Counted from the first letter of the stretch, positions 9 to 60,705 are shown. The stretch is DNA of 60,705 bases from an uncultured Victivallales bacterium (GCA_964544115.1 CAZJBP010000001.1:1-60705); one strand, 5' to 3'. Made by a program: numbers and translations. Notes: generated by a model from the sequence alone, not told the origin.

Positions 9-326
9 GGGGCGCATCCCCGTTTCAGTGCACACGGGGTTGACGCCCAGGCGGGTCCGTCTGCCCCGGCGACACGATCCGCAAAGGGGCGCGGGATGGG
101 CAGCCGCAGGCAGGCGGGCCCATATCGCGTGCCCGCGTTTCGACCCGAGCCGCGACACATCCCCCGGCAGCCTCTCGATCCGATGCGATTCCCACCGGCC
201 GCCCGAGGTCGATACCGATACCGATGCCGACCCCGACGCCGAAAGGACTGCGCGCCAGGCCGCCAGCCCCAACCGCGGGCCTGACACTACCCACACTGCA
301 CTTGCACTGAAACGGGGATGCGCCCC
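9..326. mobile_element. MITE-like foldback element with 24-bp perfect terminal inverted repeats around a ~270-bp non-coding core
   Basis: 9-32 GGGGCGCATCCCCGTTTCAGTGCA is the exact reverse complement of 303-326 TGCACTGAAACGGGGATGCGCCCC. The core contains a hexamer-phased CGG tract (about 203-236, reverse complement CGGGGT CGGCAT CGGTAT CGGTAT) and recurs in inverted orientation at 60405-60705 and partly at 52040-52135. Confidence 0.45.
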
Positions 327-3136: not shown

Positions 3137-5653
3137 ATGCTGTTCCAGAACATGTGGTTGCTGGCGGGGCTGCTGACGGTATCCATCCCGATCGTCATCC
3201 ACCTGCTGAACCGGCGGACCCCGCGGACGGTCCAGTGGGGCGCGATTCAGTTCCTCCTCGACTCCATGATCCGCTGCAAACGCCGGATCATGCTGGAGGA
3301 GGTGCTGCTCCTGGGCGCGCGGTGCCTGCTGCTCTCCCTGGTGGCCTGCGCCGTCGCCCGGCCCTTCGTGCCGCCGGGCTCGCATGTCCCGTATGCGATC
3401 GTCCTGCCGCTCGCCCTGCTGGCCATCGCGATGTTCGGCGCCTCCTTCGCCATGACGCCGGCCCCGCGGGCCGCGAGGGTCTGCCGCCTCGCCGCCGCCC
3501 TGATGATCCTGCTGGCCGGCCTGGCGGTCGGGCTGGAAAAGAAGCTCAACCTCGGACGGTTCGGCGGGGCCGCCTCGCAGAGCATCGCCCTGGTCATCGA
3601 CGGCTCGACCTCCATGACGGTCGGCGCGGACGGCACGCCCAACTTCAACCGCGCGCTCGCCGAGGCCACGCGGCTCGTTGAGACGGCCGGCCCGGGCGCG
3701 GAGTTCAGCGTCATTCTGGCCGGCTCATTTCCCGTGACGGTCATCGGCGCGCCCGCCTCGGACCGCGTCAAGGTGCTCTCGGCCCTCGAGGCCCTTAAGC
3801 CCGCCGCCGGCTGCGCGCGGGTCCCCGCGGCCCTGTCCGCCGCCGCCTCGGCGCTCGCCCTGGGCTTCTGCCCCGAGAAGAAGATCGTGTTCCTCACCGA
3901 CGGCCAGCGCGCCGGCTGGGAGACGGACGACCCCAGCCGCTGGAAGTTCGTCGGGGACACCTTTGCCAAGATGACCCCGCCGCCGGACTTTGTGCTGAGA
4001 ACCCTCCCGGGGCCGAAGCGCTTCCGCAATGCCGGGGTGGCCGCGATCGACTTCTCCCGCGAGGCCGTGGGCGCCGACCGCGAGGTCGGCATCCTGGTGC
4101 GCGTGGAGAACACGGGCAGCGAGGCCGTGACGCCGTCGGAGCTCACGCTCAAGATCGGCGAGGACGTGCTGACGGACCGGACGATCGGCCAGATCGAGCC
4201 CGGCGCTTCGGAGTCGATCCGCTTCCCGTACCGGTTCAGGGAGGCGGGGCCGCACACGCTCGTCGCCCGCCTCGCCGTCACGGACGACCTGCCCGCCGAC
4301 GACACCTGCAGCGCGGCGGTCAGCGTCATCGGGTCGCTGCGCGTCCTGCTGATCGACGGCCATCCATCCTCGCGCTTCCTGGACGGCGCCGCCTCCTTCG
4401 CCGCCCTGGCCATGGCTCCCGCCGAGGGCACCGCCACCCTCGCAAAGCGGGCGGGCGGCGCAGACGCGGAAAAGCAAGGCGCCGACCGATTTCTCATCGA
4501 GCCGAAGATTGTGGATGTCCTGTCGCTCCAGGACATCGGACCGCTGGCCGGCTATGACGTCATCGTGCTCTCCGACGTCCCGCAGCTGCCGTCCGCGCTG
4601 GCCCGGGACGTGAGGGCCTACGTGCGCGACGGAGGCGGTCTGCTCGTGGCGCCGGGAGAGAACGCCCGCCGCGACTTCTACAACGGATGGCTGACGACGG
4701 AAGGGAAGCGCCTGCTGCCGGCGGACATCGGCACGCGCATCACCGCCGCCCCGGGGGAGGAGCGCCGCCTCAGCCTGACCACCCTGACGCATCGCGCACT
4801 CCAGTCCGTCCGGGACAGCAACCGCGGCGACATCGGCACGCTGGCCGTCTCGGACTATTGGCTGCTGGGCGAGGCGGCGCCGGACGAAGCGGTGTCCATC
4901 GGAGCCCGCCTGAACAACGGCGATGCGTTTCTGGCCGAGCGCAAGGTCGGCAAGGGAGTCGTCCTGCTGACGGCCTGCTCGCTGGACCATCGCGGCAGCA
5001 ACCTCGCCGGCCTCAGCGCGTTCGTCCCCCTGATCCACGAGATGGTGTACTACCTGAGCAATCCGTCCAGACCGAACCTGAACGTCGCGCCGGGCCCGGA
5101 CATTGCCCTGCGCCTGACGGCGCGTCCGCAGGGCAAGCCGCGGGACGAGGAGGCCCGCGCAGACGTCCTGGGGCCCGACAACGTGAGCCACCCGGCCCGC
5201 CTCCTGATCTCCGGCGACGGCGCGGTGGTGAGGATGGGAGGCCTCCAGCAGCCCGGCCTGTACCGCATCACCGTGCCCGGCGCGCTCAAGGAATGCTGCG
5301 GCGACGTGCTGGCCGCCGACGGCACGGTTCCTTTCGCCGTGGCACAGGAGATTGAGGAAAGCCGCCTGCAGCCGCTCGGGCCGGCCGACGTCGAACTGGT
5401 CCGGAAGTTTACCCGGCTCAGCCAGCCGGCGACGGTCGAGGAGGCCCGGCGGATCCTGACCGGAAAGGCATTCGGCAAGGAGCTCTGGCGCCTCCTCGCC
5501 ATCGCCGCCCTGCTGCTGGTGCTGGTCGAAATAGGCCTCACCCGCTGGATCGTCGCCCGACGCGGGGAGGCCAGGGGCGTAGCGTTTTCGGGACCGAACG
5601 AGCTGTCGACGTCGTTGCGCGCACACGGGGAGACGATCCGGCATGCTGACTGA
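3137..5653 (+). CDS. BatA-N-terminal-domain membrane protein with a vWA-like region
   Basis: In-frame ATG at 3137 preceded by GAGGAG. N-terminus MLFQNMWLLAGLLTVSIPIVIHLLNRR matches the aerotolerance-regulator BatA N-terminal motif. MIDAS-like VIDGSTSM; C-terminal TM helix LWRLLAIAALLLVLVEIGL. Confidence 0.75.
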   Translation: MLFQNMWLLAGLLTVSIPIVIHLLNRRTPRTVQWGAIQFLLDSMIRCKRRIMLEEVLLLGARCLLLSLVACAVARPFVPPGSHVPYAIVLPLALLAIAMFGASFAMTPAPRAARVCRLAAALMILLAGLAVGLEKKLNLGRFGGAASQSIALVIDGSTSMTVGADGTPNFNRALAEATRLVETAGPGAEFSVILAGSFPVTVIGAPASDRVKVLSALEALKPAAGCARVPAALSAAASALALGFCPEKKIVFLTDGQRAGWETDDPSRWKFVGDTFAKMTPPPDFVLRTLPGPKRFRNAGVAAIDFSREAVGADREVGILVRVENTGSEAVTPSELTLKIGEDVLTDRTIGQIEPGASESIRFPYRFREAGPHTLVARLAVTDDLPADDTCSAAVSVIGSLRVLLIDGHPSSRFLDGAASFAALAMAPAEGTATLAKRAGGADAEKQGADRFLIEPKIVDVLSLQDIGPLAGYDVIVLSDVPQLPSALARDVRAYVRDGGGLLVAPGENARRDFYNGWLTTEGKRLLPADIGTRITAAPGEERRLSLTTLTHRALQSVRDSNRGDIGTLAVSDYWLLGEAAPDEAVSIGARLNNGDAFLAERKVGKGVVLLTACSLDHRGSNLAGLSAFVPLIHEMVYYLSNPSRPNLNVAPGPDIALRLTARPQGKPRDEEARADVLGPDNVSHPARLLISGDGAVVRMGGLQQPGLYRITVPGALKECCGDVLAADGTVPFAVAQEIEESRLQPLGPADVELVRKFTRLSQPATVEEARRILTGKAFGKELWRLLAIAALLLVLVEIGLTRWIVARRGEARGVAFSGPNELSTSLRAHGETIRHAD

Positions 5654-8600
5654 ACTCAGACGCAGTGATCTCCTGTCGGCGGATGTCCCGACCCTCGTGC
5701 TCGTCGCGCTCGCGGCCGTGGCTGTGGCAGCCTGGGCCGGCTCTCACGGATTGAAACGCCGGTTCGGGCGCCCGTGGCCGGGCCGCGGCTTCCTTGCCGT
5801 GCGTGTCCTCCTCGGAACCGCCGCCGCGTGGTCGGCTCTGCAGATCGCCGCGCGCTTCCTGATGCTGGGCACCCCGTGGTCGCTCTGGGCCACCGGCCTT
5901 GTCGCCGCGGCTTCCATCGAAACCGCCGCGGCGCTTTATCAGCTGGAGCGCGCAAGGGTTTCGACGCTCACCGGACGGATGCTCCTGGCCCTGCGGATCA
6001 CCCTGATCCTGCTGCTCATGGTAATGCTGTCCCAGCCGGTGCTGTGGTGGGAGACCGGCCGGAGCGTGACCCGCTACGTCGCCGTGCTGCTCGATGACTC
6101 GGCATCCATGCACATCACCGACCGGGCGCTGACGCCCTCGGACAAGCTGAAGCTGGCCTCTCTGTTCGGCCTCAAGGCCGTGCGCCAGCGACCGGAGCTC
6201 GATCTTCTTCCGGGCCGACTGGCCGACATCCGCAGCAAGCTCGCCGCCGAGAGCGCCGGCCTCCAGGCCGTGCCCGAAACCGACGCGGCCGCGTTCAAGG
6301 CCTTTCTCGAAAAGCAGGGCGCGTCCCTCGGAACGTTCCTGCAGGACGCGCACGGGCGCGTGAGCGGCGACTGCGAGGCGCTCGGCCGGGGCCTCGCACA
6401 GGCGGACGCCGCGCAAGGATGGAGGAAGAACCTCGAGGACATCCGCGCGCGCCTCAGCCAGAAGGTCCTCCCGCGCCTGGCCGAAGCCGCCAAACGGGTC
6501 GCCGACGGCAGCGCGGCACCCACACCGGAGCAGCGCCAGGGCCTGCTGCAGGCGCTGAACATCGCCGGCGACGAACTGGCGCAGAGCCTCGCGCTCCTGC
6601 CCCCGGCGCTGGCCGGCATGGACGAGGCCCTCTACCGCGGACTGTCGCCCGATGACGTCAAGGCCGTGGATGAGATTGCCGGCCGCACGCGCGCCCGGAT
6701 TGCGCGGGACGTACTGACCCGTCCCAAGGGAGACGCCGAGGGCATGCTCAACCGGCTGAAGAGCAAGTACGCGCTGAAGTTCGTCCGCTTCGCATCCGAC
6801 AGCGTGCCGACCGATGTGGATGCCTGGCAGAAAGGCGGGGAGGCGTCGTTTCTCCCCTCCCTGTCCAGCAACGCGCCCGACCGAGAAGATCTCCCGGCCG
6901 CGGGAGCGCTCCCACGGGCGTTCCGCGAAACGACGGACCTTGGCGCGGCGCTGGACCGGGTCGCCGGCGAAGCGACGCCCGACAGCCTGGCGGGCGTGCT
7001 GGTCCTGACCGATGGCCGCCACAACGGGAAGGTGTCGCCCGAGGCCGCCGCGCGGCGCCTGGGCACCCTCGGCGTACCGGTGTGCACGGTCTTGATCGGC
7101 AGCAGCGACACGCCGAAGGACGCCGCCGTCGTCGACGTCACGGCCCCCGTATCCGTCTACCTCGGCGACAAGGTCAACGTCCAGGCATCGCTGCGCCTGG
7201 TCGCTCTCCGCGGACGCACGGCCAAGGTCCGCCTCATGCTGAACGGCGAAGCCGTCGACGAGGCGTCGGTGGATGTGCCCGAGGATACGTTCCTGACCCG
7301 CGTGGCCCTGAGCCACACGCCGAAGGACGCCGGCATCCTCGCCTACGAGGTCGCGATTGAACCCATCGACGGCGAGCCGCTGACGGAAAACAACACGTGG
7401 CCGCTGCGGGTGGCGGCGTCGGACAACCGCATGAACGTCCTCCTTGTGGAAGGGCGCCCGCGCTGGGAGTTCAGATACCTGCGCAACCTGCTGTACGTCC
7501 GCGATCGCGCGGTGCACCTGCAGTACGTGCTGCTGGAGCCCGATCGCCTGGAGGGCGCGCCGGCGCCGGACCCGGTGGCGGCCTCGGCCTCCCGCACGTT
7601 TGGCGACGCGGAGGCCACCGCCCTGCCGGCCAGCCGGGCGGAGTGGATGCGGTTCGACGTGATCATCCTCGGCGACGTGGCTCCCGACGCGCTGGACGCG
7701 GACACCCTTGAGACGATCCAGCACTGCGTGTCGGAGCGCGGCGCGCTGCTCGTCGTCCAGGCTGGCCCCCGCTTCATGCCGCACTGGCATACGAGCCCCC
7801 TCCTGCGCGAGTTGCTGCCCGTCCGGTACGCGCAGACCGAAACCTCGTTCTACGCCAGCCCCGAGCCGGCCAGCCGCATCCGCCTGACCGCCGCCGGCAC
7901 GGCGCACCCGATCATGCAGCAGGCCGGCGGCGCGGAGGAGAACCGCGAGATCTGGGAGAGCTTCCCGCCGATCACCTGGCGCCACGCCGTCGCCAGCGTG
8001 AAGGAAGGCGCCTCGGTGCTCGCCTATGCCGAGCCGCTGCCCGTCGGACCCGGCGCCGCACTCGCGGAACGCGGCGCGCGCCGCGAGGACGCGACGGCGG
8101 CCGCCCCCCTGATCGTGGCGCAGCCCTACGGCCTCGGCCGAGTCGTGGCCCTCACCTATGATGAAACGTGGCGGCTGCGCTACCGGAAGGGCGACGTGCA
8201 TCACCACAAGTTCTGGGGCCAACTCCTGCGCTGGGGTGTGGGCGACAAGCTGCGTTCCGGCACGGAGCACGTCCGCATCGGCACGGACCTCCTCACCTAC
8301 CCGATCGGCGCCCCGGTCCGCATCGAGGCCCGGGTGCTCGACATGGACTACAAGGCCGTGACGAACGACTCGATCTACGTCCGCGTGTCCAGCAATGAGC
8401 GGGAGGTCATCCGCCGCCAGCTCCAGTATCGCCGCGATTCGTGCGGCATCTTCGAGGCCACGCTGCCCGCCATGCCGGAAGCGGGCCTGTACCGCGTGGA
8501 GCTCGAAAGCCGCAAGGTGGACGAGCTCCTGACCCGGGAAGGCGCCGCCGCAGTCGGCACGGAGTTCGTCGTGGCCGCGCCCGGCACGTCGCGGGAGCTC

Positions 8601-52039: not shown

Positions 52040-52135
52040 CTTCCCTTCGGCGTCGGGGTCGGAATCGCTATCGGTATCGACGTCGGGTGGCCCGCGGGAG
52101 GGCGGTGTGAGGCTGACGGGGGATGCGCCCGCCCC
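52040..52135. repeat. Third, shorter copy of the intergenic repeat family seen at both window ends
   Basis: TTCCCTTCGGCGTCGGGGTCGGAATCGCTATCGGTATCGACGTCGGGTGG aligns with 60545-60595. GACGGGGGATGCGCCC (about 52118-52133) resembles the TIR arm AACGGGGATGCGCCCC. Confidence 0.45.
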
Positions 52136-52600: not shown

Positions 52601-53788
52601 ATGGTCATGCATTACCGGCGGTTCGGACGCACGGAGCTGAAGATGCCCGTGCTCACGTGCGGCGGCATGCGGTACCAGCAGGCGTGGAAGGATGACGATC
52701 CCGCCCTGGAGATCGACCCCGACAATCAGGCCAACCTCGAGGCCACCGTGCGGGCCGCGGTGGCGGCCGGCATCAACCACATCGAGACGGCGCGCGGGTA
52801 CGGCACCAGCGAGATCCAGCTCGGCCGCGTTCTGCCCTCGTTTCCGCGCGCGTCGATCCTCGTACAGACCAAGATCGGCCCGGCCGAGAGCGAGGATGAC
52901 TTCCTGCGCACGTTCGACCAGTGCATGCGCAATCTGCGGCTGGACTACCTGGACCTCCTGGGCATCCACGGCATCAACACCGCCGACGTGCTCGATCTCA
53001 CGCTGCACAAGGGCACGCTGAAGGCCGCGCAGCGGCTGCGCGACGAGGGACGCGTGCGCCACATCGGGTTCTCCACGCACGGCCCGTGCGATGTCATCGT
53101 CGCCGCCATCGAGACCGGCGAGTTCGAGTATGTCAACCTGCACTGGTATTACTTCGATCCGCGCAACAGTCCTGCCATCGACGAGGCCGCCCGCCGGGAC
53201 ATGGGCGTGTTCATCATCAGCCCGTCCGACAAGGGCGGGCGGCTCTACGCCCCGCCGCCGAAGCTGGTCGAACTGTGCCAGCCGTTCACGCCGATGGGCT
53301 TCAACGACCTGTTCTGCCTGTCGCGCCCCGACGTGCACACCCTGAGCATCGGCGCGTCCCGGCCGTCGGATTTCGACGCGCACCTGGCGGTGATGCCCGA
53401 GCTCGACCGCGCGTCCGACGCCATCCGCCACGTGGTCGTGCGGCTGGAGTCCGAGATGCGGCGGGTGCTCGGGGATGCCTGGTGCGACGGCTGGGCTGAG
53501 GCGCTGCCGTCCATGGAGGCGACGCCCGGCGAGGTACCGCTCTACCACGTGCTGCGGCTCTACAACCTGGCGATGGCGTACGACATGGAGGAGTTCGGCC
53601 GCATGCGCTACAACCTTCTCGGCAGCGGCGGCCACTGGTTCCCGGGCAACAAGGTCGACAAGATCGACTGGGCGGCGCTGCGCGAGGGGCTCCGCAACCA
53701 CCCGCTGGCCGACCGCATCGAACAGGCGCTGAAGATCGCCCACGAGCGCTTCAACGCGGCCGATGAGAAGCGCCTCAGCGAGTCGTAG
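52601..53788 (+). CDS. Aldo/keto reductase family oxidoreductase
   Basis: MHYRRFGRTELKMPVLTCGGMRY, GINHIETARGYGTSE, YLDLLGIHG, VRHIGFSTHG. ATG at 52601 after GGAGGAGGGG. Confidence 0.85.
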   Translation: MVMHYRRFGRTELKMPVLTCGGMRYQQAWKDDDPALEIDPDNQANLEATVRAAVAAGINHIETARGYGTSEIQLGRVLPSFPRASILVQTKIGPAESEDDFLRTFDQCMRNLRLDYLDLLGIHGINTADVLDLTLHKGTLKAAQRLRDEGRVRHIGFSTHGPCDVIVAAIETGEFEYVNLHWYYFDPRNSPAIDEAARRDMGVFIISPSDKGGRLYAPPPKLVELCQPFTPMGFNDLFCLSRPDVHTLSIGASRPSDFDAHLAVMPELDRASDAIRHVVVRLESEMRRVLGDAWCDGWAEALPSMEATPGEVPLYHVLRLYNLAMAYDMEEFGRMRYNLLGSGGHWFPGNKVDKIDWAALREGLRNHPLADRIEQALKIAHERFNAADEKRLSES

Positions 53789-53889
53789 CGCCTCCCGGTG
53801 CCGCGCGGGCCGCGAACGCGCCTGGCGGAGGGATGAAGCAGCAGGCTCGTAGCGCCTGCTGTACCGGTACAGCGCGGGCTACGAACGCG

Positions 53890-53991
53890 CTGAAACGGGA
53901 TGCCGAAGGGCCGTCAGCACTGCGCGGCTCCGCGTTGCTTCCCGCTGTCGCCGTCCCTATGATATGCCCCTCGAGCGCCGCTGACGCGCGC
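53890..53991 (+). repeat. 102-bp direct repeat, copy 1 (carries a sigma70-like promoter at 53935-53963)
   Basis: 99/102 identical to 57538-57639 (mismatches counted by eye: 3). TTGCTT, 17-bp spacer, TATGAT. Confidence 0.85.
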
Positions 53992-54070
53992 CGTTTCTAT
54001 CCGGTGCCGGGACAGGGGTGCCGGGACAGGCGGGACAGGTGACAGGTAAAGGGTCCTTCGGAAGATCAAG

Positions 54071-56041
54071 GTGAGAGTGCGCTCAATAAGTCGCCTTGTG
54101 ATAGGCTGCCTCGTCCTGGGGTTGAGTGCGCTTTCGGGAAGAGCGCAGGAAGATCCGGCACTGTTCCGCATTGGCAAGGGGAACTTGCTCGGGTTTATCG
54201 ATCGCGACGGTCGAACGCTCGTCGTGCCCAAGTACCAGTACGTGGACACCGCCTGGTGGGAGGGGTGTTTGTGGGTCCGGGAATCGTTTCCCTTGTGGTG
54301 GCAGGGCTTGGAGACGAACGCACCCTCCGGCAACTTCATCGGCCCTGACGGGGTGACCATATCCGCGCGGCCGCTCTCAGAGCTCGATTGTTTCCGCGAG
54401 CCCATGTTCAGGAGCGGCATCGCGTTGGTGCGGCTCTCGATGAACGATTGTGCTTACATTGACAAAGCCGGGCGCATTTTATTCCACGCGCCTCCTTGGT
54501 GTGTGGGGGTTCCTGATGATGCAGGACCGTGGGTAATGGTTGAAGACGGCAAGTTCGGTTACGCCACGCGATCAGGCAAGGTCGTGGTCCCAGCGACGTT
54601 CGACGAGTGCGGCAGCTTCACCTATGGGTTTGCGCCCGTCCGGCGGGGTTCCGAATGGGGCATCATCGACTCAGACGGGAAATGGGTATTGGAGCCCTCA
54701 TATAGTGAGATCAGGAGGGTCGAGAGCGGTCACACGTTGTTGAAGTATCGGTCGGGTATACGTTGGGGAATGCTTCGCAACGACGGCAAGGTTCTTACCG
54801 CCGCGAAGTTCGATCAGGTGGGTCACGGAGGCTATGGGGTGGTCACCGTGCGGATCGGCGACAAGTGGGGTCTGGTGACCGATGGAGGCTGTACTGTTCT
54901 GGACCCCCAGTTTGAGGGGGTGGGTACTGTGACTCCGTACGTAGTGGCGGTGTCAAAAAGCAATCTCTGGGGGCTTGTGAGCCTAGACGGGACTGTTGTC
55001 CAAGAGCCGGCGTTCAGCTCGCTGTCGATCCGTGAGGCTGGTGGGCCGTGCGTCGGTCGCATGCCTCTGGCCGGCTGTGGCGTTCTGCTTGATGAGCGTG
55101 GAAGAAGGATCACCGCGCCGGCGGCGGATGATTTCCATCTGGTGGGCAACGACAGAGCTTTCTTCAGGCAGGGCGAAAAGTGGGGGCTCATGGCGACAGC
55201 GGGAGAAGTGCTGATCGAAGCGACCTACGACGATGTTGGAGGCTTCGAGAAACACGGCTTGTTTGGTGTCGCACGCAGGCGCATGCGGGGTCTGGTTGAT
55301 ATAGTGACAGGTCGCGAAGTGTTGCCGACGACGCATGAACGCGTTGTGAGTTGGCACGAGGTAGTGCGGTGCATTGACGGCGGCACGAATTCGTTCTACA
55401 CGCGGTCTGGGTCCGTGTTGGTATCTGAAGAGGCGGGGATCACGAATGTGACAGACGCATGGCTTATGTACGATGGGTATGGCGTCATAGAGGGGAAGAC
55501 AGGGGCGGGTGTCATCTCGAAGGATGGACGCATCGTGCTGCCGATGAGGTACGAGAGAGCGGGTTTCCCCTCCGAGGATCTTGTGCCGGTTCAAGTTGGG
55601 GGGAAGTGGGGGTATGTCGATCTGCGAGGCCGTCCGGTAGTAATGCCCCGCTTTGCGGATGCGGGGAGCTTTTCCGAAGGCGTGGCGTTTGTGCGGGTCG
55701 ACGACGCGTATGGATTCATTGATCACCGAGGGGAGTTTGTAATCGCACCGAAGTACGCGGCCGCTGGTTACAGCCTGAACGGTTTGCTTCCGGTCGCCGT
55801 GCGCCGCGAAGGTGGAACGGATGCGGTATGGGGGGTGGCAGCACTCAAGTGGGGGTTGATTGACCGACAGGGAAACACCGTGCTGCCCGTCGAATATGAA
55901 GTTTTGGAATGGGGGTCGAGATCGGCGAAGAAGAAGCGGCCTTACGGGAGAATGGTTAGTCGCGAATGTTCGCGCTGGGCGGATCTGGATACCGAAGGCG
56001 GCCGGTTCCTCGTCCCTTGGATTCAGGGCGCAGTGAAGTAG
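54071..56041 (+). CDS. WG-repeat (KWG-type) secreted protein
   Basis: GTG start, signal peptide RLVIGCLVLGLSALSGRAQ. More than 10 repeats of the type KFGYATRSGKVVVPATFDECGSFTYGFAPVRRGSEWGIIDSDGKWVLEPSY. GC is visibly lower than in the flanks. Confidence 0.8.
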   Translation: MRVRSISRLVIGCLVLGLSALSGRAQEDPALFRIGKGNLLGFIDRDGRTLVVPKYQYVDTAWWEGCLWVRESFPLWWQGLETNAPSGNFIGPDGVTISARPLSELDCFREPMFRSGIALVRLSMNDCAYIDKAGRILFHAPPWCVGVPDDAGPWVMVEDGKFGYATRSGKVVVPATFDECGSFTYGFAPVRRGSEWGIIDSDGKWVLEPSYSEIRRVESGHTLLKYRSGIRWGMLRNDGKVLTAAKFDQVGHGGYGVVTVRIGDKWGLVTDGGCTVLDPQFEGVGTVTPYVVAVSKSNLWGLVSLDGTVVQEPAFSSLSIREAGGPCVGRMPLAGCGVLLDERGRRITAPAADDFHLVGNDRAFFRQGEKWGLMATAGEVLIEATYDDVGGFEKHGLFGVARRRMRGLVDIVTGREVLPTTHERVVSWHEVVRCIDGGTNSFYTRSGSVLVSEEAGITNVTDAWLMYDGYGVIEGKTGAGVISKDGRIVLPMRYERAGFPSEDLVPVQVGGKWGYVDLRGRPVVMPRFADAGSFSEGVAFVRVDDAYGFIDHRGEFVIAPKYAAAGYSLNGLLPVAVRREGGTDAVWGVAALKWGLIDRQGNTVLPVEYEVLEWGSRSAKKKRPYGRMVSRECSRWADLDTEGGRFLVPWIQGAVK

Positions 56042-56069
56042 TGGGATCCCCTGCGTCAGAAAAGCACTC

Positions 56070-56203
56070 GGACAAGTGACGGACGAGTACTGACGGCACA
56101 CTGGGGAGCACACTGACCACACTGGGGACAGGTAAACTGTCGGAGATAGACAGACAAGTGACAGGTAAAGTCACCGGACAAGCGGACAAGTGACAGGTAA
56201 AGT
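56070..56203 (+). repeat. Array of short direct repeats with a GACAGGTAAA(G) core
   Basis: GACAAGTGACAGGTAAAGT perfect at 56153-56171 and 56185-56203. GACAGGTAAA also at 56127-56136. CACACTGGGGA occurs twice (56097-56107, 56118-56128). Related GGGACAGG x3 plus GACAGGTAAAG at 54004-54051. Confidence 0.7.
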
Positions 56204-56392
56204 ATCCTCCACCGGGGTGTAGGGTGGGCGAATCTGGCAGGGCGGGGCGCCGGGGCGTCAGTGTTTGTGAAGGGCGTCTGAGGTGGGTGTGACGGCGTTC
56301 TGAGTGGCACACGGAGCGCGAACGGCGGAAGCCGGGCACGCGCCGGCTGTTGGGTTGCCGGTCGGTGCCGTGAGCCAGCTTGCTGGCGGCGC

Positions 56393-57349
56393 TCAGACGA
56401 TCTGGCGCAACTGCCTGAAGCTGTAGATCTCGGGCCGTGAGCCGGCGGGATCCGGCGCCAGGGCTCGGGTGAGGCGTCGCCTGGCTATGGCCGCCTCGCC
56501 ACGGGCCTTGGCCAGAACGTTCTTCACGAAGAGGTCCGAGCCGATGACCAGGCCGTCAACCCAGTAGCGCACGCGGCGATCCGCGCGGATTGCAAAGGGC
56601 TGCTTCTCGGCGGCCTTCAGGGCGACGGCCTCTACGGTCTGCGGGGACGCGCCGGCCTCCACTGCCGTCTCGACAGCGATGGCGCGGCGCAGGGCTGACA
56701 GAAGGCTGTCCATGTCCTTGGCCCCAAGGCCCTCGGGCAGTGTCGGCAGCACGTGCGAAACGACGGGCTCTTCCCACGGATGCCGGCCAGCGGCCGACCA
56801 CTCGGCCAGGGTGCAGAACCGGTAGTCGGCGGGGTTTCTGACGATGCCTGCGCGTACCGGGTTGAGTTCCAGATACTTCCAGCAGTGCCAAACGGACAGA
56901 CCGCCTTCGAGGATGGTGTTTTTGAACCGCTCCTGCCAGAGGTGTCCCCGGCGGCGCACAGGACGTGTGCGGTTGAACCAGCGGGTGAACTGCTGCTGGA
57001 GGTCCTTCATGAAGCGGCTGACATCGCGCAGTTGCCCGGGCAGAGCCGCGGCCCGTTCAGTACCCACGCGCACCGTCTTCTTGCCGTCGTAGAAGGCATT
57101 GAATCGCGCCACCGCCTCCGCCTCCGGAAGCCCCTTGCCAGGGATGAACGTCAGCAGATGGAAGTGGTTGCCCATGACCTGGTAGGCGACAACCTCCACC
57201 GTGTACAGCCGCAAGAGCTTACGCATGATACAGACGAAGCACTCCTTCTCTGCCGGTCCGAAGGGGAACTCCCCCACGTGCCCACCGATCCGATTATAAA
57301 GGTGCATGAACGTGTCCACTTCCGACGGCTTGATCCTGGCCTGACGCAT
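56393..57349 (-). mobile_element. REP-associated tyrosine transposase-like (IS200/IS605 Y1 HUH superfamily) gene
   Basis: HUH motif VMGNHFHLL. RGHLWQERFKNTILE...YLELNPVRAGIVRNPADYRF (catalytic Tyr in the YxxxNP context). 318 aa with a non-catalytic C-terminal extension. Confidence 0.8.
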
Positions 57350-57417
57350 GGTTTCCTCCCCGGTGAGTGACTCGCCCCCTCCACACCTACCAAAGCAACT
57401 GCCGCGTCCGAATTCCG

Positions 57418-57532
57418 GTCGAAGGTGGACTACTAACCTGTCCCTATCGGCCGCCCGGTCGAAGGTGGACTACTAACCTGTCCCTATCGGCTTCGGCTAG
57501 TCGAAGGTGGACTACTAACCTGTCCCTATCGG
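57418..57532 (+). repeat. Three perfect 33-bp direct repeats GTCGAAGGTGGACTACTAACCTGTCCCTATCGG separated by 7 and 9 bp
   Basis: Copies at 57418-57450, 57458-57490 and 57500-57532, immediately upstream of the RAYT-like gene. Contains the reverse complement of GGGACAGGT. Confidence 0.9.
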
Positions 57533-57537
57533 GGCCC

Positions 57538-57639
57538 CTGAAACGGGATGCCGAAGGGCCGTTAGCATTGCGCGGCTCCGCGTTGCTTCCCGCTGTCGCC
57601 GTCCCTATGATATGCCCCTCGCGCGCCGCTGACGCGCGC
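57538..57639 (+). repeat. 102-bp direct repeat, copy 2
   Basis: See 53890-53991. Ends 10 nt before the asnS ATG (GGAGG RBS in between). Confidence 0.85.
57583..57611 (+). promoter_or_regulatory. Putative sigma70-type promoter of asnS
   Basis: TTGCTT (57583-57588), 17-bp spacer, TATGAT (57606-57611), 39 nt upstream of the ATG at 57650. Confidence 0.45.
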
Positions 57640-57649
57640 TGGAGGCGAC

Positions 57650-59155
57650 ATGAGCGATTCGATAGACACGACCGTTGACCGTCTGGCCGAACACGCGGGA
57701 CAGGCCGTCCGTTTGCGCGGCTGGGTGTACGGCCTGCGGCGCAGCGGCAAGGTGGCGTTTCTGGAATTGCGCGACGGCACGGGCATCTGCCAGTGCATCG
57801 TCGAGGCGTCTGCGCCGGAGGCGTTCGAGGCCGCCGGCCGACTGACCCAGGAGTCCTCGCTGGCGCTGACCGGCACCGTGCGCCCCGAACCGCGCGCCCC
57901 GGGGGGCTATGAGATTGCGGTGGTGACGCTGGAGCCCGTGCACATCGCTGAGGATTACCCCATCACCCGCAAGGCCCACGGGTGGGACTTCCTCTTCTCC
58001 CATCGCCACCTGTGGTTCCGGTCGCGCCGCCCGACCGCCATCCTCCGTATTCGCCACACGCTGATCCGCGCCTGCCGCGAGTTCTTCGACAACCGCGGCT
58101 TCACGCTGGTGGACACGCCGATCCTCGTGCCCGGAGCCGGCGAAGATACGCAGACGCTCTTCCCGGTGACCTACTTCGACCGGCAGGCCTACCTGGCGCA
58201 GACGGGCCAGCTCTACCTGGAGTCGGCCTGCATGGCGCTGGGAAAGGTGTACTGCTTCGGACCGACGTTCCGCGCCGAGAAGTCCAAGACGCGCCGCCAC
58301 CTGACCGAGTTCTGGATGATCGAGCCGGAAATCGCCTTCGCCGACCTGGACGACGTGATCGCCCTGGCCGAGGATTTCATGGTCCATCTTGTCGAGCGGG
58401 TCCTGGCCGCGAACACGGCGGATCTCGAGTCCCTCGGCCGCGACGTCGAGGCGCTGCGCCTCATCCGCAAGCCGTTCCCGAGGATGACGTACGATCAGGC
58501 GGTCGAGAACCTGCGCAGCGAGGCCACGCGCCAGAGGATGGAGGCGCGCCTGGAGCAGGCGCGGGCCGAACTGGCGGCGCGGCGCGCGGAGCAGGGCGCG
58601 CTGACGCTGGAGCTGGAGTCGGCCAAACAGGCCTGGAAGCAGGACAAGGCCCGGCTGGCCCTGCAGGAAACGGCGGACGCGATCACGGACCTGGAGCGCG
58701 AGGTGGAATATGCCCCCGAGCACATCCGGCTGGCGCAGGCGTTCGAGTGGGGCGGCGACCTCGGCGGCAGCGACGAATCGGTGCTGTCGCGGCAGTTCGA
58801 CCGCCCTCTGTTTGTGACCGACTATCCCGCCGAGGCCAAGGCGTTCTACATGAAGCGCCATCCGCACGACCCGCGGCGGGTCCGCAACATGGACCTGCTG
58901 GCGCCGGAGGGCTACGGCGAGATCATCGGCGGCAGCCAGCGCGAAGACGATATCGAGACTCTGCGCCGCAGCACGCAGGAGAAGGGGCTGCGCCCCGAGG
59001 ACTACGACTGGTACTTTGACCTGCGCCGCTTCGGCTCGGTCCCGCACGGCGGCTTTGGGCTGGGCATCGAGCGGACGCTGACGTGGATCTGCGGCCTCAA
59101 GCACGTCCGCGAAACCATCCCGTTCCCCCGCACGATGGGGAAGATGGTTTTGTGA
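57650..59155 (+). CDS. asnS: Asparagine--tRNA ligase with a ~65-75-aa coiled-coil insertion
   Basis: FRAEKSKTRRHLTEFWMIEPEIAF (AsnRS motif 2 context), GGSQRE, RRFGSVPHGGFGLGIERTLTWICGLKHVRETIPFPR (motif 3). Confidence 0.85.
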   Translation: MSDSIDTTVDRLAEHAGQAVRLRGWVYGLRRSGKVAFLELRDGTGICQCIVEASAPEAFEAAGRLTQESSLALTGTVRPEPRAPGGYEIAVVTLEPVHIAEDYPITRKAHGWDFLFSHRHLWFRSRRPTAILRIRHTLIRACREFFDNRGFTLVDTPILVPGAGEDTQTLFPVTYFDRQAYLAQTGQLYLESACMALGKVYCFGPTFRAEKSKTRRHLTEFWMIEPEIAFADLDDVIALAEDFMVHLVERVLAANTADLESLGRDVEALRLIRKPFPRMTYDQAVENLRSEATRQRMEARLEQARAELAARRAEQGALTLELESAKQAWKQDKARLALQETADAITDLEREVEYAPEHIRLAQAFEWGGDLGGSDESVLSRQFDRPLFVTDYPAEAKAFYMKRHPHDPRRVRNMDLLAPEGYGEIIGGSQREDDIETLRRSTQEKGLRPEDYDWYFDLRRFGSVPHGGFGLGIERTLTWICGLKHVRETIPFPRTMGKMVL

Positions 59156-60404: not shown

Positions 60405-60705
60405 CACAAGCATGGCGCACGCCCGCAGCGGAGTCGAGTCCGCGATGGGCTGGCTGTCGGCAGCGGGCGCATCCGCGATTCAGTTCAAGCCGGTTGGGGT
60501 GTTGCCAGGCCTGCCGTCGTCGTGGTTGGCGGCCTCGCGCGCATTCCTTTCGGCGTGGGGGTCGGGATCGCTATCGGTATCGAACTCGGGCGGCCGGCGG
60601 TGGGTGGCTCGGTCTTGATGCTGCCGGGGGATGTGTCGCGGATCGGGTCGAAACACGGGCGCGTGATATCGGCCCGTCTGCCGCGTTGCCTTCGGGGGGC
60701 GCAGA
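60405..60705. repeat. Inverted homologue of the element at 1-385, truncated by the window end
   Basis: Reverse complement of about 95-260 aligns with about 60528-60695, e.g. CTGCCGGGGGATGTGTCGCGG.TCGGGTCGAAAC.CGGGC and TTCGGCGT.GGGGTCGG.ATCG.TATCGGTATCGA.CTCGGGCGGCCGG. TIR-arm homologue GGGCGCATCCGCGATTCAGTTCA at 60466-60488. Confidence 0.6.

Follow-up and report, generated by a model that had tools for sequence, protein, structure and literature searches.

A TIRtron with a WG-repeat passenger gene between 102-bp direct repeats upstream of asnS in an uncultured Victivallales bacterium

TIRtrons take their name from Di Nocera et al. 2013 (BMC Genomics 14:522, PMC3733652), where the gene product is called TIRYT. 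In the sections of that paper on which we draw, the terminal inverted repeats (TIRs) have the consensus GGGGWSAS and often occur as dimers or clusters. According to the corresponding sections of Quentin et al. 2018 (PMC6006769), TIRYTs largely coincide with subclass 2.1 of the TnpAY1 proteins, with the motifs NH[YF]H, W[EQ] and YIELNP. The class was defined by comparative genomics in 2013, and in these sections of the two papers mobility is raised only as a point to test. Neither text mentions target duplications or direct repeats, and in the parts used here we found no description of cargo or insertion polymorphism of TIRtrons. Here we describe a TIRtron in 60,705 nt of DNA from an uncultured Victivallales bacterium (GCA_964544115.1 CAZJBP010000001.1:1-60705; hereafter the window), located between an aldo/keto reductase (AKR) gene and asnS. 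Beside the TIRtrons described in those sections, three things are new: a polymorphism of filled and empty sites, a passenger gene in the TIR array and a very long flanking duplication.

On balance, we think it probable that a single insertion event produced this arrangement, in which a cargo-bearing TIRtron duplicated 102 bp of native DNA upstream of asnS. The parts of the locus are as follows (positions are those of the window; labels such as L001 and L184 denote retrieved comparison loci).

52601-53788, + strand: AKR gene, the left native flank (Pfam Aldo_ket_red, E 2.6e-20); adjoins asnS in L184 and L185
53783-53890, + strand: AKR stop-codon context with an imperfect older duplication (53783-53821 against 53847-53890, about 85% identical, one indel)
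53890-53991, + strand: direct repeat 1 (DR1), 102 bp; starts 101 nt past the AKR stop
54005-54055, + strand: distal right-end TIR array, three GGGACAGG then GACAGGTAAAG; on the far side of the WG gene, its length varying between strains
54063-56066, + strand: captured WG-repeat cassette (open reading frame (ORF) 54071-56041; signal-peptide-like N terminus; Pfam WG_beta_rep, E 7e-63)
56070-56206, + strand: proximal right-end TIR array, degenerate CGGACAAGTGAC units, then one GGGGACAGGTAAAC and two GTGACAGGTAAAG
56393-57349, - strand: TIRYT gene, encoding a 318-aa HUH/Y1 tyrosine transposase-like protein with the motifs NHFH, LWQERF and YLELNP
57415-57533, - strand: left-end TIR array, three tandem 40-42-nt units, each with GGGACAGGTTAGTAGTCCACCTTCGAC
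57538-57639, + strand: direct repeat 2 (DR2), 102 bp; ends 10 nt (GGAGG Shine-Dalgarno region) before the asnS ATG
57650-59155, + strand: asnS (asparagine-tRNA ligase), the right native flank (NCBIfam asnS, 520 bits, above cutoff)

The TIRtron, its protein and its passenger gene

The initial annotation had reported a RAYT-like HUH/Y1 transposase gene and, between the direct repeats, arrays of GACAGG-core repeats. Both were borne out: the repeats form the three arrays listed above, and with the gene they constitute a TIRtron, a described but little-studied class, as their fit to GGGGWSAS indicates. Motifs of this type occur at 56123-56130 (GGGGACAG) and as GGGACAGG units at 54010-54039 and 57437-57525. 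Copies of GGGACAGGTTAG occur upstream of the TIRYT gene, and inverted GACAGGTAAAG copies downstream of it. The left-end units lie 91, 131 and 173 nt upstream of the TIRYT start codon; the GGGGACAGGTAAAC and GTGACAGGTAAAG copies lie 193-258 nt past its stop codon. Elsewhere in the window there are no GACAGG-core repeats apart from one match with a single mismatch. The TIR array is dynamic: at 54015 L001 is longer by 24 nt (two additional GGGACAG units), and in the relative L164 a pair of left TIRs is spaced 44 nt apart. The idea that the arrays are hairpins of the repetitive extragenic palindrome (REP) type was rejected, the single-stranded folds of the three arrays giving z = +0.56, +0.58 and -1.32 against shuffles.

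Several measures mark the protein as a Y1/HUH homologue of TnpAREP. It matches Pfam Y1_Tnp with 28.6 bits, above the 23-bit cutoff, and NCBIfam REP_Tyr_transpos with E 3e-15, below the cutoff. Its AlphaFold model (pLDDT 82) has E. coli TnpAREP (4ER8) as the best Foldseek match (E 7e-7, TM 0.70), followed by the IS200, IS608 and ISDra2 transposases, and the sequence alignment to PDB 4ER8 spans the YxxxNP helix. Residues N61-H62-x-H64 and Y159 are invariant among 21 homologues, where the tyrosine motif is YxExNP. An insertion of roughly 45-55 aa separates the HUH strand from the next core helix, and no helix-turn-helix or DnaA_C Pfam match was found in the protein at E<=0.01. Hundreds of metagenomic sequences make up a conserved family of about 317 aa in which identities are 44-57%; a tblastn search of PLSDB plasmids with the window protein gave no match at E<=1e-10. 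Its dN/dS against L183 is 0.21. L183, from the same sample as L002, is a 1.5-kb contig with a 78%-identical TIRYT paralogue or orthologue. Similarity to the window ends at the ORF stop, the 5' flank is absent as the contig begins inside the gene, and within 630 nt downstream there is no clear TIR.

Other members of the family have comparable ends. We surveyed the flanks of 80 metagenomic loci encoding TIRYT relatives, 34 of them with usable flanks. A CAGGT[AT][AG]-core motif, typically GGTGCCAGGTAAATAG or GGGACAGGT, is present at about 10 of these 34, around 100 nt upstream of the gene and, inverted, around 190-360 nt downstream. In one sample (Ga0256913; L164, L172-L179) at least nine TIRtron copies, 78-96% identical, are spread over different contexts of a genome with about 35% GC. 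They have a common unit of about 1.3 kb, and similarity ends exactly at GGGACAGGTTGAT on one side and ATCAACCTGTCCC on the other. This is insertion-sequence-like behaviour with true TIRs. Long direct repeats are absent from this family; at one of its copies (L177), TAAATA is found on both sides.

Inside the window element, between its two right-end arrays, lies the WG-repeat gene. The initial annotation had placed this gene and the HUH/Y1 gene between the direct repeats in a stretch of lower GC. The matches to WG_beta_rep and Y1_Tnp agree with that assignment, and in the GC profile of the window the value is 0.58-0.62 across 53900-56300 as against about 0.69 in the flanks. The WG gene is foreign and was separately acquired from a source of 58% GC, and its boundaries are defined: 93.1% nucleotide identity to L186/L187 is confined to 54063-56066, a span that begins 8 nt ahead of the start codon and ends 25 nt past the stop. 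In L186/L187 the context has a GC of 0.58 and other neighbouring genes, and the GC of the WG gene agrees with that context, not with the host. No TIR arrays occur in L186/L187, where a single near-miss, GGGGACCGGTTG, lies about 75 nt downstream of the WG gene. Between the two copies dS is 0.11 (dN/dS 0.43), whereas host genes of the window and its relative L184 differ by a dS of 0.6-0.8; the divergence of the WG copies is thus much more recent than that of the species. Among the database matches of the WG protein one is close (90%), the rest being about 20-32% identical.

How the gene entered the array is suggested by its borders. The cassette is bordered by the 5-nt repeat TCGGA (54058-54062 and 56068-56072). 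Removing the WG segment with one TCGGA restores an array unit of regular form, GACAGGTAAAG-N7-CGGACAAG, as found at 56160-56190, and for this reason the WG gene appears to be an insertion into a right-hand TIR array that was once continuous. In the donor-like context of L187 both WG boundaries follow AACGCAG (about 1752-1758 and 3763-3769). The AACGCAG and TCGGA boundaries could be a cleavage-site signature or microhomology. At the other sampled TIRYT loci no cargo accompanied by additional TIR copies was found. Towards its 3' end the WG gene also has four substitutions private to the window strain within 59 nt (55941, 55955, 55980 and 55999), positions at which all other strains carry the allele of the foreign copy in L187.

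The direct repeats and the empty site

The direct repeats were reproduced in coordinates and identity as first annotated, and so was their placement relative to the AKR stop and the asnS start. DR1 and DR2 agree at 99 of 102 positions (97%; blastn E 5e-48); the differences are 53915/57563 C/T, 53920/57568 C/T and 53974/57622 A/C. They abut the outermost TIRs: the end of DR1 is 13 nt from the distal right TIR array, and the outermost left TIR unit is 4 nt from the start of DR2. DR1 runs on its outer side directly into AKR-derived sequence, and the outer side of DR2 continues into the asnS Shine-Dalgarno sequence. A classical short target-site duplication would be 2-15 bp, identical and abutting; here the repeats span 102 bp, have 97% identity and are separated from the TIR arrays by 4-13 nt. 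Collapse to a single copy would rebuild an ordinary spacer of about 150-210 nt. The 102-bp unit might have been a high-copy dispersed repeat, as the initial annotation had considered, but no third copy exists in the 60.7-kb window or in 187 retrieved loci, except at the same locus in the same species.

The arrangement is not peculiar to one assembly. More than ten contigs of the same species, from different ENA and JGI metagenome samples, carry it at 99.3-99.9% identity with both repeat copies invariant. Because these independent assemblies agree, an assembly artefact is ruled out.

Two relatives show the site without the element. A search of reference genomes with AsnS gave best matches of 48-56% identity, and two relatives with 85% identical AsnS came from the protein database. 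In L184 the AKR gene, a 104-nt spacer and asnS follow one another; in L185 the stop codon of AKR and the start codon of asnS overlap. Because AKR adjoins asnS directly in both, L184 and L185 are empty sites. They support the earlier proposal that an accessory cassette was inserted between AKR and asnS with a duplication, and they speak against the alternative that relatives share the arrangement. The adjacency of the two genes in an empty site was thus as anticipated; the single 102-bp copy expected with it is not recognizable in either spacer. Alignment scores of the L184 spacer with the direct repeat, the AKR-downstream DNA or the linker equal those of shuffles, and we attribute the failure of the spacers to align to the host-gene dS of 0.6-0.8.

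What the 102 bp represent has to be judged from their position and content. Both copies contain TTGCTT-17 nt-TATGAT, a weak sigma-70-like pair of hexamers (in DR1 at 53935-53940 and 53958-53963, pointing to the WG gene). Read by eye these match the sigma-70 consensus at 8 of 12 positions, which is below the threshold of a promoter scanner, and all three differences between the repeats fall outside both hexamers. The repeat may thus carry a promoter. Rfam gave nothing at the gathering threshold in the whole window, and only a chance microRNA match at E<=1 in the DR1 region, so the repeat corresponds to no known leader or riboswitch; the RNA fold of the repeat with the asnS start is no better than that of shuffles. 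The initial annotation had spoken of a duplicated asnS leader or promoter. A duplication directly upstream of asnS is indeed present; because the relatives' spacers cannot be aligned, we infer rather than observe that the 102 bp are native promoter or leader DNA of asnS that served as the target.

One other TIRYT locus in the survey has a long direct repeat. In L100 (= L112) a 55-bp, 91% identical repeat (1581-1635 and 3182-3236) lies around the TIRYT gene. Its first copy starts 3 nt before the stop codon of a GH4 gene and abuts a TIR array of at least eight CCAGGTAA units upstream of the TIRYT gene; the second lies 26 nt past the TIRYT stop codon. Because the first copy begins inside the last codons of the neighbouring gene, this repeat is derived from the target. 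Only the window and L100/L112 qualify as loci with long direct repeats. Two further candidates were ruled out: in L156 the repeated end is at the contig edge, and in L118 the repeat is an internally deleted second TIRtron copy. The latter (4070-4200 and 6206-6345), 1.15 kb downstream of the full copy, has a 5' end that extends 24 nt into the ORF and is fused to the 3' tail, as in a non-autonomous derivative.

The junction has been rearranged more than once. The stop-codon context of AKR is duplicated downstream, as noted in the initial annotation, with an alignment score of 45 against a shuffle mean of 16 and maximum of 37, and the second copy stops exactly at the start of DR1. It is tempting to speculate that this older duplication is the footprint of an earlier event of the same kind.

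A resemblance had also been noted between the left edge of each direct repeat and the arm of a foldback element at 303-326. The resemblance is slight: the two have 14 nt in common, CTGAAACGGG plus ATGC with a 1-nt gap, and nothing further; the arm sequence CTGAAACGGGGATGC occurs at 14-28 (-) and 307-321 (+). The foldback element belongs to a dispersed repeat family (9-326, 52041-52097 and 60465-60705) in which 109-265 resembles 60682-60527 (86%, inverted) and 52041-52097 is a partial copy. Positions 9-32 and 303-326 form a perfect 24-nt inverted repeat, GCACTGAAACGGGGATGCGCCCC, and the family therefore looks like a miniature inverted-repeat transposable element. Near the right-hand end of the window some strains have an insertion sequence of roughly 1.8 kb (a DUF6788 gene and a UPF0236-type transposase gene) at 60445-60453 with a 9-bp overlap or duplication; it is present in L004/L005 (= L013/L014) and absent from the window strain. 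L001 departs from the window after about 60562, where its neighbours encode a 219-aa protein, Peptidase_M24 and DnaA, and another strain has URO-D and GH130 past the same point, a synteny breakpoint beside a copy of the dispersed repeat.

Origin of the duplication

In the reading that we prefer, the segment 53992-57537 is a TIRtron whose TIRYT gene is framed by GGGGWSAS-type TIRs amplified into short arrays, and capture of the foreign, lower-GC WG gene has split the right-hand array. The mobile unit thus runs left TIRs, TIRYT gene, right TIRs, WG gene, right TIRs. It would have entered the AKR-asnS spacer after the lineage split from the relatives with 85% identical AsnS, and the same event would have duplicated a 102-bp target made up of the promoter-like region and the asnS 5' leader. 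One copy would now precede the TIR array and WG gene, and the other would keep upstream signals on asnS. Duplication and insertion were, we believe, one event. An insertion so near an essential gene likely survives only if the gene keeps its upstream signals, and survival at this site would have required the duplication. A rare outcome with a long duplication may be what we see here because asnS had to keep those signals. Long, variable target duplications of 8-514 bp have been described for IS1634/IS1549, without a mechanistic model (PMC2266710).

Several points weigh against a single insertion. Five multi-copy TIRtron relatives have neither a flanking direct repeat nor a consistent short target duplication, so a long duplication is not the normal outcome in the family. 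To our knowledge, Y1/HUH transposition as known from IS200/IS605 makes no target duplication. The spacers of the two relatives (0 and 104 nt) have no detectable similarity to the 102-bp unit, and the promoter-like hexamers match the consensus weakly (8 of 12) and are not called by the scanner. Uniqueness of the direct repeats refers to the window and the retrieved loci, and that of the TIRs to the window; at L100 no recognizable right TIR was found.

The direct repeats might instead have arisen in two steps, a possibility that we take seriously while finding it rather unlikely. The TIRtron would first have come to lie beside a single 102-bp unit, and a circle or linear copy comprising the element and adjacent flank would then have re-integrated at this same locus, either through Campbell-type homologous recombination or by inserting again at the flank's distal edge; alternatively, the promoter segment would have been duplicated later under selection for asnS expression. 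Such a history fits the three differences between repeats that are each invariant among strains, as from slightly different donors, and the older AKR-end duplication marks the site as prone to rearrangement. Typical members of the family, moreover, are without target duplication. It needs more events than a single insertion, however, and a later, independent duplication would not be expected to meet the outer TIR boundaries within 4-13 nt on both sides; nor does any of the more than ten contigs show an intermediate arrangement.

Less likely still is that the 102-bp units are part of the mobile DNA. They would then be either terminal direct repeats lying beyond the TIRs or a small repeat element in their own right, and the copy next to asnS would supply a promoter only incidentally. 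The AKR-asnS spacers of relatives contain no alignable unit (one relative has no spacer at all), and the left edge of the repeat has its 14 nt in common with the arm of another repeat element of the window. Yet no other copy exists in the window or in any retrieved locus, the homology of the multi-copy relatives ends exactly at the TIRs, and L183 (78%), although its 5' flank is missing, has nothing in common with the window 3' of the ORF stop. The repeat in L100 starts in the last codons of a neighbouring gene and is hence target-derived, and the GC of the window repeats is host-like. An ancestral arrangement, from which the relatives would have lost the cassette by recombination between the repeats, seems to us very improbable. 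All sampled strains of the species do carry the cassette with fixed differences between the repeats, but loss by this route would leave one 102-bp copy, whereas the genes overlap in L185 and the L184 spacer is unrelated. The WG gene is at a dS of only 0.11 from a copy in a foreign-GC context, as against 0.6-0.8 for the species split, and the cassette has a GC of 0.58-0.62 against 0.69 for the genome.

A more ambitious proposal joins gene capture and duplication, and we offer it as a long shot. TIRYTs might build TIR arrays as landing pads, splice foreign single-stranded DNA into them and move by a replication-coupled route. The pieces taken up would be ORF-sized; for the WG gene, the cut would have fallen behind AACGCAG at each donor boundary and the joining at TCGGA inside the array. 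A replication-coupled move of the enlarged unit could duplicate tens to about 100 bp of target. If true, TIRtrons would capture genes and duplicate promoters as a system of their own, apart from integrons, ISCR elements and classical transposons.

The locus bears on wider questions. The filled site set against two empty sites, together with an insertion-sequence-like multi-copy sister family, argues on comparative grounds against reading all TIRYTs as domesticated genes: at least some would be transposases that are active now or were so recently. A 102-bp duplication (55 bp at the second locus) is mechanistically puzzling for enzymes of the HUH/Y1 type, which are not known to leave any. An insertion upstream of an essential tRNA-synthetase gene can nevertheless persist, the asnS upstream region being present on both sides of the insert.

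Comparison with known systems

Elements of the IS200/IS605 family have subterminal hairpins and no TIRs; their transposase, about 150 aa long, has a Y...Q motif, and they move by peel-and-paste single-strand transposition. The window element is like them in the HUH/Y1 catalytic core fold and in having multi-copy relatives without a regular short target duplication. Its TIRs, its 318-aa protein and its tyrosine motif YLELNP keep it outside that family. IS1634 and IS1549 offer the parallel of variable direct repeats of tens to hundreds of bp around an insertion. Their transposase, however, is an unrelated DDE enzyme and long direct repeats are the rule there, whereas TIRtrons have them at only two loci (the window and L100/L112) among family loci with usable flanks.

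One-ended capture by IS91/ISCR elements and Helitrons is similar in that an HUH enzyme is involved, a passenger lies between two termini of the same orientation and the ends are tandemly repeated. These systems use Y2 or helicase-fused enzymes, have ends that are not inverted repeats and make no target duplication. In the window, by contrast, the passenger with its TCGGA flanks looks inserted into the array, not read through.

REPtrons and their RAYTs are closer. The best structural and sequence match of the protein is E. coli TnpAREP (4ER8), and a short motif inverted around the gene has been locally amplified into clusters that resemble bacterial interspersed mosaic elements. But the window motifs are not palindromic (fold z -1.3 to +0.6), the 60-kb window has no dispersed copies of them, the protein has twice the length, and some relatives are multi-copy like insertion sequences. 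Among the TnpAY1 proteins, NHFH, WQ and YLELNP match the motifs of subclass 2.1, whereas the length of 318 aa and the insertion after the HUH motif recall subclass 2.3.

The closest described system is the TIRtron itself. As in TIRtrons, a RAYT-homologous Y1/HUH protein with a C-terminal extension is encoded by a gene with inverted repeats, not hairpin REPs, on either side; the TIR motif agrees with GGGGWSAS, and the TIRs lie at conserved distances and are sometimes clustered. Unlike them, the element in the window has a passenger gene inside its TIR array, a 102-bp flanking duplication and, in relatives, a clean empty site.

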